A stretch of DNA of 53,411 nucleotides from Atribacterota bacterium (GCA_028703475.1 JAQVMU010000003.1:1-53411), one strand, 5' to 3'; shown: positions 44,195-50,400, numbered from the stretch's first letter. Notes: generated by a model not told the origin, from the letters alone. Numbers and translations: made by a program.

Positions 44195-44228
44195 AGGATA
44201 AACATACATGTGTTTATCCTTTTTTTAT
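44195..44228 (+). terminator. Rho-independent terminator after pgk
   Basis: AGGATAAACA (44195-44204) / TGTTTATCCT (44211-44220) 10-bp stem followed by a T run. Confidence 0.8.
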
Positions 44229-44296
44229 TTTAGTAATTTCACAATTATCTTTATGATAAGTATAAGTTGATAATTCTCTTATAATCTGCAATACTA

Positions 44297-44324
44297 TTGA
44301 CAAAAAAATAAGGCATTGTATAAT
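44297..44324 (+). promoter_or_regulatory. Sigma70/SigA promoter of the csoR-like gene
   Basis: TTGACA 44297-44302, 16-bp spacer, TATAAT 44319-44324. Confidence 0.8.
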
Positions 44325-44327
44325 AAT

Positions 44328-44346
44328 TATACCCTGGGGGGGTATA
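44328..44346. promoter_or_regulatory. CsoR-family operator
   Basis: TATACCC-TGGGG-GGGTATA palindrome with a G-tract, just downstream of the -10 box and upstream of a CsoR-family gene; matches the known TACCC-N-GGGGGTA type operators. Confidence 0.85.
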
Positions 44347-44354
44347 GTAATATT

Positions 44355-44639
44355 ATGCCACAAGAAGAAAGAATTGATGAAATCGGTAGAATAAAAATAT
44401 TAAAGCGCTTAAAGAGAATAGAAGGACAAATAAGAGGGATTCAAGGAATGATTCTTGATAATAGATCCTGTGAAGAAATCCTCATGCAGGTTGCAGCAGT
44501 TAAATCTGCCCTACAAATGATAAATAAATTAATATTGGAAGAAAAAATAAATTCATGTTTTAACTACTCTGAAGAAATATATCTTCCCCAAAGTGCTCTT
44601 GATGAAATAATTAAACTTATAAACAGGTTTATGAGATAA
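44355..44639 (+). CDS. CsoR/RcnR/CstR-family transcriptional repressor
   Basis: KRLKRIEGQIRGIQ.M, CEEIL.QVAAVKSAL; Cys39 and Cys68 present. ATG 44355 is preferred because the tracked start 44316 lies inside the promoter. Confidence 0.9.
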   Translation: MPQEERIDEIGRIKILKRLKRIEGQIRGIQGMILDNRSCEEILMQVAAVKSALQMINKLILEEKINSCFNYSEEIYLPQSALDEIIKLINRFMR

Positions 44640-44640
44640 A

Positions 44641-44670
44641 TTGACACAAATTTATTCTATGTCCTATAAT
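44641..44670 (+). promoter_or_regulatory. Internal sigma70 promoter upstream of mcsA
   Basis: TTGACA 44641-44646, 18-bp spacer, TATAAT 44665-44670. Confidence 0.7.
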
Positions 44671-44709
44671 TAATTGGATAAAATAGACACCTTGAAAGAG
44701 GGTGATAGA

Positions 44710-45249
44710 ATGCTATGCCAGATGTGTAAAAAAAATAAGGCAACTGTAAAAATTGTCAAGGTTGCAGGGTTGAGCAAAACAGAGCTAAATGTTTGTAATG
44801 AATGTGCTAATTATCTGTTGGGAAATACAATCACTACAATTTCCTTTACACAAAATAGTTTAAATGAAATATTGTTTAATTTACTGAATACATTTTCAAA
44901 ATATAGCAATGAAGACAGTAATGTTACTTCAGAATCTGAGGTGAAATGCTCGAACTGCGGTATGACTTATGCTGAATTTGTAAAATCAGGAAAACTTGGA
45001 TGCAGCAATTGCTATAGTGTGTTTAGAAAATATATCAAGCCACTTTTAAATCGGTTACATGGAAATTATCAGCATTCCGGAAAGATACCGGATTCGTTAC
45101 AATTGCGTTTGGATATAATAAAAAAGATTGAAAAAATAAAGGATGAACTGAAAGAGGCAGTGTCAAGAGAAGAATATGAAAAAGCAGCAAAATTAAGAGA
45201 TACCATAATAGATGAAGAAAAAAAAGCGGGAATAAGAGACAACGAGTAG
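44710..45249 (+). CDS. mcsA: McsA, activator of protein-arginine kinase
   Basis: CQMC...CNEC, CSNCG...GKLGCSNCY, C-terminal UVR motif ([11 protein letters not shown]). ATG 44710 follows GAGGGTG. Confidence 0.93.
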   Translation: MLCQMCKKNKATVKIVKVAGLSKTELNVCNECANYLLGNTITTISFTQNSLNEILFNLLNTFSKYSNEDSNVTSESEVKCSNCGMTYAEFVKSGKLGCSNCYSVFRKYIKPLLNRLHGNYQHSGKIPDSLQLRLDIIKKIEKIKDELKEAVSREEYEKAAKLRDTIIDEEKKAGIRDNE

Positions 45250-45254
45250 TAAAG

Positions 45255-46310
45255 ATGGATGTAAACATAAGAAAATTAAGAGATTCAACAGCATACTGGA
45301 TGAAAAAAGACGGTCCTTTGAGCCATATTATAATAAGCTCGAGAATAAGATTGGCCAGAAACATAAAGAATATTCCATTTCCATTTCGAGCAACTGATGA
45401 GCAATTGCTGACCGTAATAGAAAAAGTCGAAAAAATATTAAAGGAAAATAAGGAATTTTATGGTTTCCAAATAATAAAATTAGATAATTTGTCACCGGTT
45501 GAAATTGAATTTTTGGTGGAAAAAAGGTTAATCAGCTTTGCCCTGGCAAGATTTAGTAAACCTTATCGTGGGATATTATATAATACCGATGAGACGATGA
45601 GCATTATGATTAATGAAGAAGATCACTTTAGATTACAGAGTATGCTGCCGGGATTCCAGCTTAAAAAGGTCTGGGAAATCATAAATTATTATGATGATAA
45701 GATTGAAAAGGAAATAAAGTATGCATTTAATGAGAAAGAGGGATTTCTCACCTGTTGCCCTACAAATGCCGGCACAGGTTTAAGGGCATCTGTGATGCTT
45801 CATTTGCCGGGATTGATAATTTCTAACAAGATAAGTGAATCAATAAATACAATAATTAAACAAGGATATGCTGTAAGAGGTTTCTATGGTGAAGGAACTG
45901 AATTTCAAGGAAATTTATTTCAGATATCAAATCAGGTCACATTAGGTTTAAGCGAAGAAGATATTATAAACAGGTTAGAGATTAGTATCAAGCAGCTAAT
46001 TGAAAAAGAACAGAAAGCAAGAGAAAAGTTGATAATTCAGGCTAAGCACAAGATAGAGGATCAGGTTATGCGGTCATATGGTATTTTAACAAATGCAAAA
46101 ATTATTACGACCGCTGAAGCACTAAATTTGCTTTCATATGTCAGATTTGGAATCGAAATGGGTATAATAGCAAGAATAGGCTATGATGTTATAAATCGAC
46201 TTATGTTAATAGTGCAGCCCGGGTATCTGCAATTAATCAAAGGGCAAAATATGAAAAAAATGCAAAGAGATACAGTAAGAGCAGAATTAATTAAGGAAAT
46301 ATTAGATTAG
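45255..46310 (+). CDS. mcsB: Protein-arginine kinase McsB
   Basis: SSRIRLARN, LVEKRLIS, INEEDH.R.Q, GFLTCCPTN.GTGLRASVMLHLP, VRG.YGEG, FQISNQ.TLG. Confidence 0.96.
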   Translation: MDVNIRKLRDSTAYWMKKDGPLSHIIISSRIRLARNIKNIPFPFRATDEQLLTVIEKVEKILKENKEFYGFQIIKLDNLSPVEIEFLVEKRLISFALARFSKPYRGILYNTDETMSIMINEEDHFRLQSMLPGFQLKKVWEIINYYDDKIEKEIKYAFNEKEGFLTCCPTNAGTGLRASVMLHLPGLIISNKISESINTIIKQGYAVRGFYGEGTEFQGNLFQISNQVTLGLSEEDIINRLEISIKQLIEKEQKAREKLIIQAKHKIEDQVMRSYGILTNAKIITTAEALNLLSYVRFGIEMGIIARIGYDVINRLMLIVQPGYLQLIKGQNMKKMQRDTVRAELIKEILD

Positions 46311-46400
46311 TATTTACTAAATAAGTATCATGAAATAATATAAACAGACTTTTGTAAATTTGCTTGTAACACTTATAATAATTAAGGGAAGGGTTAAAAC

Positions 46401-48875
46401 ATGTTTAAAAGATATACAGAAAAAGTAAGAAAAGTAATTATGATGGCACAGGAAGAAGCTGTAAATCTTAATCATAATTATATTGGAACCGAGCATATAT
46501 TGGTAGGTCTTGTAAAAGAGAATGAGGGGCTTGCCGGTAAAGTATTAAGAGAACTTGGGGTAGAACCTGAAAAGGTTATTGAAGCAATTGAAAAGATAGT
46601 GGGAAAAGGAGAATACCAGGAAGTTAGTGAGATTACATTTACACCGAGAGCAAAAAAAGTATTAGAGTTAGCTTCACAAGAAGCAAGCCAGTTAGGGCAG
46701 AATTACATTGGCACCGAACATATTCTTTTAGGTCTAATTAAAGAGGGAAGCGGAGTTGCTACTAGAATTCTAAATGATATGGGAATCGACCTGGAAAATG
46801 TTTACTCACAAGTTATGAAGGTGTTAATGGAAAACGGGCAATCAGAGCCAACAGTGGCTAATAGTATTACTCGTAAGGATAGTAAGGTTCCCACTCTGGA
46901 TGAGTTTGGAAGAGATTTAACAGAATTAGCCAAAGAAGACAAGTTGGATCCGGTAGTTGGAAGGAGCAATGAGATACAAAGGGTTATACAGATATTGAGC
47001 CGTAGAAAGAAAAACAATCCTTGTTTGATTGGAGAAGCCGGAGTAGGGAAAACTGCAATTGTAGAGGGTTTAGCTCAGAAGATTGCAAATAATGATGTTC
47101 CCGAAATATTGAAAGACAAGAGGATTATCAGCTTGGACCTTGCTTTAATTGTAGCCGGAACAAAATATAGGGGTGAATTTGAAAAAAGATTAAAGAAAAT
47201 TGTAAAAGAAGTGCAGAATTCAAATGATGTTATTCTGTTTATCGATGAATTCCATACATTGGTTGGTGCGGGAGCAGCAGAAGGAGCCATTGATGCCTCA
47301 AATATTTTGAAGCCTGCCCTGGCAAGAGGTGAAATCCAAGCTATTGGTGCCACTACAACTGATGAGTATAGAAAATATATTGAGAAAGATAAAGCATTAG
47401 AAAGACGTTTTCAACCAATTAATGTACCTGAACCCACAACCGATGAAGCAGTTCAAATTTTAGCTGGATTAAGGGATAAATATGAAGCCCATCACAAGCT
47501 TACTATTACTGATGAGGCATTGGAATCTGCAGTAAAACTTGCCGCAAGGTATGTTTCAGGACGGTTTTTACCGGATAAGGCTATTGATGTTATAGATGAA
47601 GCCTCATCAAAAGTTAAACTAAAAAATACTGTCTATCCTCCTGATGTAAAAGAGGTAGAGGATGAGTTGCTTAAAATAAGAAAAGAGAAAGAAGCCTCTG
47701 TTAAACTTCAGGAATATGAGAAAGCAGCAAAATTAAGGGATAAAGAGCGTAAATGCCTGGAACGTTACAGTGAAATAAAAAAAGAGTGGGAAACAGGCAG
47801 GACAAAAGATAAAATTGAAGTAACTGTTGAAGATGTTGCAGAGGTTGTTTCCAGTTGGAGCGGTGTACCGGTCTATTCTTTAAAAGAAGAAGAGGCCAAA
47901 AAGCTTATACGGATGGAAGACGAATTGCATAAAAGGATTGTTGGACAAGATGAAGCCATTAATGCTATTTCAAGGGCAGTCAGGCGTGCCCGTGCAGGTA
48001 TGAAAGATCCAAAAAGGCCAATCGGGTCATTTATTTTCTTAGGTCCGACCGGAGTTGGAAAAACTGAATTGGCAAGAAGTCTTGCAGAATTCCTTTTTGG
48101 AGACGAAAATGCTATGATAAGTCTGGATATGTCTGAATATATGGAAAAATTTGCCGTTTCACGTTTGGTGGGCGCACCTCCCGGATATGTTGGTTATGAT
48201 GAAGGTGGGCAGTTAACTGAAAAGGTTAGAAGAAGACCTTATTCGGTAATATTGCTTGATGAAATAGAAAAGGCACATCCCGACGTATTTAATATACTTT
48301 TGCAGATATTTGAAGATGGCAGGTTAACCGATGCACAGGGAAGGGTAGTTGATTTTAAGAATACTGTAATCATAATGACCTCCAATGTGGGAGCTACTTT
48401 AATTAAAAAAGGAACATCTTTAGGATTTAGAAGTGTCACAGAACCTGTCCAAATGTCTTATAAAGATATAAAGGAAAGTGTAATGGGTGAACTTAATAAG
48501 ACTTTCAGACCGGAATTTCTAAACCGCATAGACGAAGTTATCGTATTTAAGGGACTCACTCAGAATGATATCAAAAAAATATCAGAAATATTATTGAAAG
48601 AAGTCGGAGAATTATTGGAAGAGCAAAAAATAACTTTCAATGTTAGAAAGAGTGCAAAAGACATTTTGGCAAAAGAAGGATATGATCCTAATTTTGGTGC
48701 AAGACCATTAAGAAGAACAATTGAGAGATTAATTGAAAATCCCATATCTGAAATGATACTTTCTGGAGAGTTTAAAGAAAATGACCAGATTATTATAAAG
48801 GGTAAGAAGGGGAAGATTACATTTGAAAAAGATAAGAAAAAGCATCCCGAGATTCTAAAAAGAAATAACAAATAA
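46401..48875 (+). CDS. clpC: ATP-dependent Clp protease ATPase subunit ClpC
   Basis: Double Clp-N (IGTEHIL x2), [20 protein letters not shown]-domain, [16 protein letters not shown]. Confidence 0.97.
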
Positions 48876-48924: not shown

Positions 48925-50310
48925 ATGGCAACAAAGATTACAATGAAAAACAATAGCAAAGAATATTTCAGATGTACGACTTGCAGTTATGAAACCCCAC
49001 AATGGTTAGGACGCTGTCCGAGTTGCGGGGAGTGGAATACTTTTATCCGGCAGGAAAGAAATGGTAAAGGTAAGACTAATTTAAAGAATAAAAAAGAAAA
49101 TCGAGCTCAACTTATAAATGATTTTGTAATAGATAAAGAAAATCAGCGCTATCAATCAGGGATTAGGGAGCTTGACCGGGTATTAGGAGGGGGATTGGTT
49201 TCAGGTTCTTTAATTCTCGTTGGAGGAGAACCTGGAATTGGAAAATCAACCCTTGTTCTTCAAGCAGCTGATCAGCTTTCAAAAAATATCGGGTGCACGC
49301 TTTATGTGACTGCAGAAGAATCAATAAGACAGATACATATAAGGGCAAAGAGATTATCAGTAAATGCTGAAAAATTATACTTACTCTCAGAGACGGACCT
49401 GGATCAAATAATTGAACAGATATTGTACATAAAACCAAAGGTGGCTATTATTGATTCTATACAAATTATTAATGATAATTCTATACCATCAGCTCCTGGC
49501 AGTATAAATCAGGTAAAAAACTGTACCTCCCGACTGATGGAAATAGCAAAAAAGAATAACATTGCCCTGATTATTATAGGTCATGTAACAAAAGGTGGTA
49601 TTATTGCCGGACCAAAAATACTTGAGCATATGGTGGATACAGTATTATATCTTGAAGGGGAAAGGTTTCATTCATTTAGATTATTGAGAGGAATAAAAAA
49701 CCGGTTTGGGACTACAAATGAGCTTGGAATATTTCAGATGCAAAATGAAGGACTGAAAGAAGTACTTAATCCCTCAAAAATGCTGTTATCATCGAGGAGT
49801 GAACCAATTCCCGGAACTGTCACGACTGTTACATTTGAGGGGAGCCGTCCATTGGCAATTGAAATTGAAGCCCTGGTAAGTAATTCATTTTTAACAAATC
49901 CAAGGCGTATAACTACCGGTGTTGATTATAATAGAGTATCCTTAATTATTGCAGTATTAGAAAATAAGTTAGGATTGAACTTTCAGTATAAAGATATCTA
50001 TGTAAATGCTGCAGGTGGCATCAAGGTAAGTGAGCCTGCAATTGATTTGGGAATTGGCTTAGCAATAATCAGCAGTAGCAAAGGCTTTGCTGTTGATATG
50101 GATACCGTAGTTTTTGGTGAGCTGGGACTAACAGGAGAGTTGAGAGCAGTTGGTATGTGTGAAAGAAGGGTCAAAGAGGCACAAAAAATAGGCTATAAAA
50201 AAATAATCATGCCTTCAGAAAATGCCCGGCAATCAGGTCATTTATATAAAGGGATGGATATAAAAGGTATTTCTAATGTACATGAAATATTAAATTTTAT
50301 TAAAAAATAA
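48925..50310 (+). CDS. radA: DNA repair protein RadA/Sms
   Basis: C4 zinc finger, GEPGIGKST, IDSIQ, KNRFG, Lon-like C-terminus. Start could be ATG 48943. Confidence 0.96.
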   Translation: MATKITMKNNSKEYFRCTTCSYETPQWLGRCPSCGEWNTFIRQERNGKGKTNLKNKKENRAQLINDFVIDKENQRYQSGIRELDRVLGGGLVSGSLILVGGEPGIGKSTLVLQAADQLSKNIGCTLYVTAEESIRQIHIRAKRLSVNAEKLYLLSETDLDQIIEQILYIKPKVAIIDSIQIINDNSIPSAPGSINQVKNCTSRLMEIAKKNNIALIIIGHVTKGGIIAGPKILEHMVDTVLYLEGERFHSFRLLRGIKNRFGTTNELGIFQMQNEGLKEVLNPSKMLLSSRSEPIPGTVTTVTFEGSRPLAIEIEALVSNSFLTNPRRITTGVDYNRVSLIIAVLENKLGLNFQYKDIYVNAAGGIKVSEPAIDLGIGLAIISSSKGFAVDMDTVVFGELGLTGELRAVGMCERRVKEAQKIGYKKIIMPSENARQSGHLYKGMDIKGISNVHEILNFIKK

Positions 50311-50371: not shown

Positions 50372-50400
50372 TTGACACTGTTTTTTTCCGATGATATAAT
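50372..50400 (+). promoter_or_regulatory. Consensus sigma70 promoter upstream of the PIN/TRAM gene
   Basis: TTGACA 50372-50377, 17-bp spacer, TG-n-TATAAT 50392-50400. Confidence 0.85.

Follow-up and report, generated by a model that had tools for sequence, protein, structure and literature searches.

In Bacillota, the mcsA-mcsB-clpC module is normally headed by ctsR, the gene of the heat-shock repressor CtsR. The McsB/ClpC arginine-phosphorylation pathway is known almost wholly from this CtsR-controlled form, where McsB inactivates CtsR via arginine phosphorylation in the DNA-binding domain and where phospho-arginine is a degradation tag for ClpCP (PMC11046695; 10.1101/2025.11.26.690658). Among repressors of the CsoR/RcnR superfamily, the x-C-H-C fingerprint corresponds to Cu(I) sensors and the x-C-x-C fingerprint to persulfide sensors, the second (resolving) Cys being poorly conserved in one group (cluster 10) of genuine persulfide-sensing CstRs (PMC8643695). 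A member of this superfamily and the mcsA-mcsB-clpC module come together in the locus considered here, namely positions 44,297 to 48,875 of a 53,411-nt stretch of DNA (GCA_028703475.1 JAQVMU010000003.1:1-53411), the whole of which is called the window below. The window belongs to a metagenome-assembled genome of 1.79 Mb from a member of the phylum Atribacterota, lineage JS1, and not from a Firmicute; JS1 is here a class made of a single order with 52 species. Judging by record titles, JS1 relatives include Candidatus Oleincola, Oleihabitans, Stramentimicrobium, Phoenicimicrobium and Sediminicultor, and the window sequence recurs in metagenomes of landfill, digester and biofilm.

In this locus, a csoR-like gene heads mcsA-mcsB-clpC-radA, and the repressor it encodes fills exactly the slot of CtsR in the sister classes within this phylum. 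Taken as a whole, it is likely that this JS1 repressor shuts a promoter, P1, via a predicted operator, and that derepression reads through into mcsA-mcsB-clpC-radA as a boost over a second promoter, P2; the protein-quality-control system appears rewired to a different stress signal. P1, the operator, the csoR-like gene, P2 and mcsA-mcsB-clpC-radA had already been described by a reading of the window made from the sequence alone (the sequence-only reading), and all were found where that reading had placed them. With the terminator before P1 and the promoter after radA added, the locus consists of:

44195-44230, + strand: intrinsic terminator of pgk, an 11-bp stem then a T-run
44297-44324, + strand: P1, a sigma-70-type promoter TTGACA-16-TATAAT, 12/12 matches
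44328-44346, + strand: CsoR-type operator TATACCCTGGGGGGGTATA, a 19-bp inverted repeat TATACCC-TGGGG-GGGTATA, beginning 3 nt past the P1 -10
44355-44639, + strand: CsoR/RcnR-family (PF02583) repressor gene, 94 aa (ATG 44355, stop 44637-44639), E = 4e-25
44641-44670, + strand: P2, TTGACA-18-TATAAT, 12/12 matches, beginning 2 nt past the repressor stop codon
44710-45249, + strand: mcsA, with four CxxC motifs and a UVR motif (PF02151), NF053706 E = 1.5e-47, the score of 161.8 bits being under the 210-bit cut-off of that model
45255-46310, + strand: mcsB, protein arginine kinase, NF002194, 426 bits vs. a cut-off of 385
46401-48875, + strand: clpC, with Clp_N repeats, two AAA modules and a short UVR middle domain (Pfam architecture), and an LGF ClpP-binding loop (from the translation)
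48925-50310, + strand: radA, TIGR00416, 570 bits
50372-50400: a third perfect promoter, with an extended -10, before a PIN-TRAM yacL-like gene

The 94-aa protein falls within the CsoR/RcnR superfamily by its PF02583 match, which reaches 88.3 bits vs. a cut-off of 22.8 over residues 14-91, and its solved relatives include CsoR, InrS, CstR and FrmR, the closest being the Geobacillus CsoR 4M1P (E = 6e-15). The operator is also of the kind found in this superfamily, with a G/C tract, AT-rich inverted-repeat flanks and an overlap with the promoter of its own operon. At 44328-44346 lies the only convincing CsoR-type site in the genome: the repeat has no other match in the window at up to 2 mismatches (0.13 expected), and no further copy, be it at clpP, at hsp genes or at copA, was found in the 1.79-Mb genome, either as an exact match or, outside coding regions, at up to 2 mismatches. 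As for the promoters, perfect TTGACA-N16-18-TATAAT sites amount to 18 in the whole genome, three of which lie within this 6-kb locus. The operator is expected from its position to cover the transcription start, as had been proposed; its G-run, proposed at the same time as the ribosome-binding site of the repressor gene, is in this role no more than plausible, given its distance of 13 nt to the ATG in this locus and a spacing that differs among relatives.

On the + strand of the window, no terminator was found from csoR to the end of radA, the sole nearby one being that closing pgk, at 44195-44220, by which P1 is, judging from this layout, isolated from upstream transcription. The last gene of the transcription unit is probably radA, since no + strand terminator lies ahead of it and a fresh perfect promoter (50372-50400) comes after it, followed by the PIN-TRAM yacL-like gene and then cysS in the list of open reading frames of the window. 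The encoded McsB has its conserved motif CPTN/GTGLRAS intact and scores 326 bits against solved McsB structures.

The absence of ctsR and of the CtsR heptad repeat, noted at first for the operon, extends to the genome as a whole, where the CtsR domain (PF05848) has no match at E <= 1 (completeness 100%) and where the repeat RGTCAAA-NAN-RGTCAAA is nowhere found within 1 mismatch, the matches in the window being at chance level. The domain is missing from all JS1 genomes (0/52) and was detected in the two controls, namely B. subtilis and L. lactis. In the other Atribacterota classes, CtsR is present in 27 of the 29 genomes, directly 5' of mcsA-mcsB-clpC (e.g., lysS-ctsR-mcsA-mcsB-clpC), and the two genomes without it are also without mcsA; as a positive control, the heptad pattern, with up to 2 mismatches permitted, has matches just 5' of ctsR in 15/27 of these sister-class loci. 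A search of the window's genome for hrcA, suggested together with that for ctsR, gave the opposite result, hrcA being present and perfect CIRCE elements preceding both groES and hrcA-grpE, so that class I regulation of these genes by HrcA/CIRCE would be intact. The clpP gene lies in tig-clpP-clpX, without an operator of its own. Elsewhere in the genome, outside the window, an identical 13-nt palindrome ATGCTAATAGCAT is found just 3' of perfect promoters at C74:8384 and C38:31168, ahead of an Hsp20-type small heat-shock gene and of the gene of a 142-aa protein, and these sites may constitute a small autoregulated hsp20 regulon with a putative repressor.

The proposal also depended on csoR and mcsA remaining neighbours in relatives, and they do so in 34/39 informative JS1 species. 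With pgk upstream, the order csoR-like gene, mcsA, mcsB is found in 29/29 informative loci (30 loci from 13 JS1 genera, the 30th stopping at a contig edge), and the same csoR-mcsA-mcsB order came out of a scan of a species collection (25 JS1 records, of which 24 informative); the arrangement exists in 5 further JS1 genomes. The adjacency holds down to 45% protein identity, and neither mcsA, mcsB nor clpC was found within 4 kb of csoR in any of 55 outgroup CsoR loci, many of which adjoin copA/copZ. In the tree, the JS1 repressors are monophyletic (support 99/92), with an inner split mirroring the two species families, f1 and f2, as would be expected from one ancient recruitment and vertical descent thereafter. 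Their clade is placed among C-H-C copper sensors, apart from the C-x-C group of Thermotogota/Desulfovibrio, and the JS1 repressor would descend from the C-H-C copper-sensor radiation. On the side of the kinase, one JS1-type protein of 531 aa (P0048) carries both a UVR (McsA-like) domain and an arginine-kinase domain, being either an McsA-McsB fusion or a gene-calling artefact.

Across JS1, a TTGACA -35 and a -10 at or close to consensus (TATAAT, TATTAT and variants) stand directly 5' of the operator in 30/30 loci, and ATACCC-N5-GGGTAT follows directly past the -10 in 29 of them, the 30th having one altered flank base; the operator sequence is ATACCCTAGGGGGGTAT for family f1 and TATACCCCCATAGGGTATA for family f2. 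Most JS1 genomes have exactly one such site, and the additional exact sites seen in relatives are mainly within genes or chance matches, with the exceptions of G008, G012 and G005. In G008 and G012, a second exact operator lies 5' of the gene of a 256-aa membrane protein (Fer4_5 and 4Fe-4S dicluster; L168 ~2072 and L169 ~1998), for which the window's genome yielded no orthologue; as these two genomes carry the mcsA-linked CsoR only, the regulon there may have two targets. In G005 (L173, contig C154), a second, canonical C-H-C CsoR paralogue has its own operator, beside cation-diffusion-facilitator and glutaredoxin-like genes.

P2 is found in 19-20/29 JS1 loci, its spacer being of an unusual 18 nt in f1 and f2 alike. 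The strict pattern does not find it in the other 9-10/29, a few of which retain weaker promoter-like hexamers, and in two loci without P2 the gap between csoR and mcsA is 22-29 nt, so that mcsA is expressible there from P1 only. Neither a CsoR-type nor another palindromic site was found in the aligned P2 regions, and there are no genomes lacking both P1 and P2. It had been cautioned from the outset that P2 could drive mcsA independently of the operator, and this caution was well placed, with P2 occurring in about two thirds of species and remaining as the only promoter after loss of the repressor. On these alignments, P1 with its operator is the constant companion of the repressor gene, P2 being a common but optional second entry point.

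Transcription was considered through metatranscriptome contigs of three studies, which take in the 3' end of csoR together with the P2 region. The X28 contig (44461-44720) comprises the 3' half of csoR, P2 and the start of mcsA, i.e., it crosses the csoR-mcsA junction, and the contigs X31 (44524-44674) and X33 (44494-44671) span the P2 region in a way not transcribable from P2 itself. In X28, the csoR-mcsA pieces are the deepest across 16 kb, and one RNA contig ends at 44232, near the pgk terminator. For family f2, the locus L076 appears in no metatranscriptome run. The start of the X26 contig at 44333 was considered as a transcription start and rejected, its 29-nt overlap with the neighbouring contig denoting a break of the assembly graph and X25/X26 possibly containing DNA. 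In family f1, the P2 -35 begins 1-3 nt past the csoR stop codon which, together with the lack of a terminator, implies that P1 transcripts must enter mcsA. A terminator parting csoR from mcsA, which the sequence-only reading had named as fatal to its proposal, was not found, and the RNA contigs spanning the junction are supportive, not decisive, as regards read-through.

Following the behaviour of its family, the repressor would bind as a tetramer to the sole genomic operator just past the P1 -10 and, once bound, would block the very strong P1 and autoregulate. Upon inactivation of the repressor, P1 would fire and, because no terminator follows, its transcription would continue through csoR into mcsA-mcsB-clpC-radA. 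In most species, P2 would provide strong operator-independent expression from mcsA onward, with the consequence that P1 and the operator would act as an inducible boost, derepressed P1 presumably lifting mcsA-mcsB-clpC-radA above the P2 level if the family behaviour holds here; in species without P2, P1 and the operator would be the sole promoter.

As regards the signal, the thiol or metal input originally put forward is still a candidate. The window protein has the fingerprint C39/K64/C68, without His, K64 aligning with the His ligand of 4M1P. The 30 JS1 repressors divide into C-H-C (6), C-x-C (12), one Cys only (12) and neither Cys (0), the C-H-C members all belonging to family f2. Position 39 is Cys in 28/30, f1 having Cys save Tyr in 2 and f2 having Cys; position 64 is Lys, Glu or Arg in f1 and His in 11/11 of f2; position 68 is Cys in 20/30, with Cys or Tyr/Ser/Phe in f1 and Cys or Trp/Arg in f2. 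The window protein has both Cys of the CstR-type x-C-x-C pattern, as have 18/30 clade members, one being absent in 12/30. Invariant in all 30 are the DNA-contact helix (R18, E23-G24-Q25, R27-G28-I29-Q30; RLK-x-IEGQ-x-RGIQ) and R37, and JS1 species with an incomplete triad keep perfect operators. The near-invariance of Cys39 speaks for a chemistry of Cu(I) or of thiols/persulfides and, with His64 and Cys68 conserved only in patches, some other input could also be at work. As such, the Cys pattern is compatible with a Cys39-centred thiol sensor and equally compatible with a decaying ancestral copper site after takeover by another input. The candidate inducer is most likely a Cys39-based chemical signal, be it Cu(I), a persulfide or some other thiol-reactive compound; that McsB or ClpC exerts the control is an attractive minority view. 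FrmR-like Pro2-Cys sensing was rejected as a conserved mechanism, Pro2 being present in the window protein but in few relatives. The CopA-like ATPase gene of the genome (contig C118 5731-7899) has no CsoR operator, which indicates that copper efflux is not controlled by this repressor. This gene, encoding a CopA-like P1B ATPase (MTCINC, CPC, DKTGT), follows ATP-synthase-like genes, and a masked N run lies in the neighbouring gene.

Several observations weigh against the JS1 repressor governing the operon through P1. The repressor and the operator are gone in five JS1 species (G025, G030, G038, G040 and G034), the pgk-to-mcsA region being kept; the perfect P2 carries no CsoR-type site, and mcsA-mcsB-clpC may be largely constitutive via P2 whatever the repressor does; the sensor triad varies across the 30 sequences of the JS1 clade; and the RNA contigs are assembled, of depth 2-6 and unstranded, with DNA carry-over possible. 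Four of the repressor-less loci (L175, L176, L178 and L179) consist of pgk, a Mut7-C gene, P2 and mcsA, with mcsA-mcsB intact and P2 as the sole promoter; in the fifth, from G034 (L185), mcsA and mcsB are frame-disrupted, which may reflect decay or assembly error. It could then be that csoR is a mere passenger, P1, the operator and csoR forming a self-contained autoregulated unit whose adjacency to mcsA is inherited synteny, with P2 driving mcsA-mcsB-clpC and with the job of the repressor lying elsewhere or being vestigial. P2 has indeed a perfect consensus, is conserved in both JS1 families and suffices alone in four repressor-less species; pgk upstream is likewise syntenic class-wide, a sign that the local gene order is generally stable; and two genomes have a second operator 5' of the unrelated Fer4 membrane protein gene. 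This explanation is nonetheless improbable, considering that read-through is structurally enforced in f1 by the position of the P2 -35 right after the csoR stop codon with no terminator, that P2 goes undetected by pattern in 9-10/29 species, that the single operator of most genomes leaves no other target visible, and that an adjacency seen in no outgroup is kept to 45% protein identity. A different view of the same protein makes it an analogue of CtsR, inactivated by McsA/McsB phosphorylation of the invariant DNA-contact arginines or by ClpCP degradation, its metal/thiol site being dispensable. This we hold to be doubtful: the arginines in question (R18, R27 and R37) are, like the helix RLK-x-IEGQ-x-RGIQ, invariant where His64 and Cys68 drift, but as family-wide features of CsoR and not JS1-specific ones; the perfect operator is retained despite an incomplete triad, yet the presence of Cys39 in 28/30 is an argument that thiol chemistry retains a role, and a poorly kept second Cys is also known from genuine persulfide-sensing CstRs (PMC8643695). 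In favour of the analogy, csoR takes up the operon position of ctsR, beside an intact McsA/McsB/ClpC set. By the same analogy, there is a small chance that the JS1 repressor is a substrate of the McsA/McsB and ClpC-ClpP of its own operon, arginine phosphorylation of the DNA-contact helix releasing P1. Were it so, the CtsR-McsB feedback loop would have been rebuilt convergently on an unrelated scaffold, and the decay of the ligand triad alongside an intact protein and operator would be explained.

Returning to the repressor as a regulator of the operon, its history can be told in two ways. The sequence-only reading had it that csoR replaced ctsR; the shared slot stands, and the replacement is one candidate, independent recruitment being the alternative. 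In that alternative, the mcsA-mcsB-clpC module of the JS1 ancestor, whether original or acquired, was without CtsR, and a copper-type csoR cassette (promoter and operator) was inserted upstream of it, the ctsR of the sister classes being gained or kept separately. We consider it a tenable course of events, though somewhat short of an even chance. JS1 McsB scores 326 bits against solved McsB vs. 107 bits for the sister-class McsB, being the more Bacillota-like of the two, and the identity between JS1 and sister-class McsA/McsB is only 21-34%, which suggests that the two modules are not simple vertical counterparts; besides, P2 directly 5' of mcsA resembles a promoter of the module's own. The Bacillota-like nature of JS1 McsA/McsB cuts both ways, however, the Bacillota module normally having ctsR at its head, and both other major Atribacterota lineages hold ctsR in exactly this slot, just as the order radA, PIN-TRAM yacL-like gene and cysS matches the region of the Bacillus ctsR operon. 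Displacement of ctsR is favoured by the sister-class slot, the Bacillota-like JS1 McsB and the Bacillus-like downstream synteny, whereas the divergence of the sister-class McsB and the identity of only 21-34% call for caution, so that either polarity may hold. The best 120 matches of a protein search with McsB were all JS1-type, hence uninformative on displacement vs. recruitment. The sister-class McsB (L048 437-1462, - strand; loci L043-L057) is itself highly divergent, with SHVNK for CPTN and GTGMDLS for GTGLRAS, and may no longer be an active kinase.

Full-text searches of the literature gave no published description connecting a CsoR-family regulator with mcsA, mcsB or clpC, nor any mention of CtsR in Atribacterota. 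The JS1 case is that of a non-orthologous regulator heading a known operon and conserved across a class. In these abundant anaerobes of the subsurface, landfills and digesters, the same machinery stands behind a repressor of another family, whereas the sister classes keep CtsR, which makes for a natural experiment in swapping the regulatory input of a proteostasis system and for a CsoR-family clade whose target lies beyond the detoxification of metals, sulfur or aldehydes. Under anoxia, copper makes proteins aggregate and is thereby strongly proteotoxic (PMC9040851), and a copper/thiol-type sensor driving an unfoldase would, hypothetically, be sensible in strict anaerobes. Although the organisms are uncultured, the small JS1 proteins are amenable to in vitro work.

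Set beside the known systems, the JS1 locus would work as an autoregulated CsoR operon placed in the regulatory niche of CtsR, and it shares traits with each of them. The window protein resembles the CstRs of S. aureus, E. faecalis and S. pneumoniae (7MQ1) in its x-C-x-C pattern, the first Cys being conserved and the second variable as in the cluster-10 CstRs (PMC8643695), but the JS1 clade groups with C-H-C sensors in the tree and not with the sampled C-x-C groups, and neither the operon nor the surroundings of its one operator hold any sulfide-oxidation, rhodanese or persulfide-detoxification gene. With the Cu(I) sensor CsoR (B. subtilis; Geobacillus 4M1P), it has in common the fold family and the type of operator, ATACCC...GGGGGTAT after the -10, and the C-H-C triad is partly kept in family f2, the JS1 clade nesting among copA/copZ-linked C-H-C CsoRs; unlike in these, Lys takes the His ligand position in the window protein, and the operator commands no copper efflux or chaperone gene (copA/copZ) but a kinase and an unfoldase. 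The JS1 operator presumably resembles the copZA site of B. subtilis. The locus differs from the B. subtilis ctsR operon in that its first cistron encodes an all-helical PF02583 protein and not a winged-helix CtsR, its operator is a G/C-tract inverted repeat in place of the heptad direct repeat, an additional, internal promoter lies ahead of mcsA, disA is absent and clpP is without such an operator; neither a PF05848 protein nor the heptad repeats of a CtsR regulon were found in the window's genome. The order mcsA, mcsB, clpC, radA, PIN-TRAM yacL-like gene and cysS is nevertheless the same as in the B. subtilis ctsR-mcsA-mcsB-clpC(-radA-disA-yacL...) region and, as in the class III heat-shock operon of B. 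subtilis, the gene of a repressor, presumably autoregulated here too, opens the operon, preceded by a sigma-70-type promoter with the operator across its start region.

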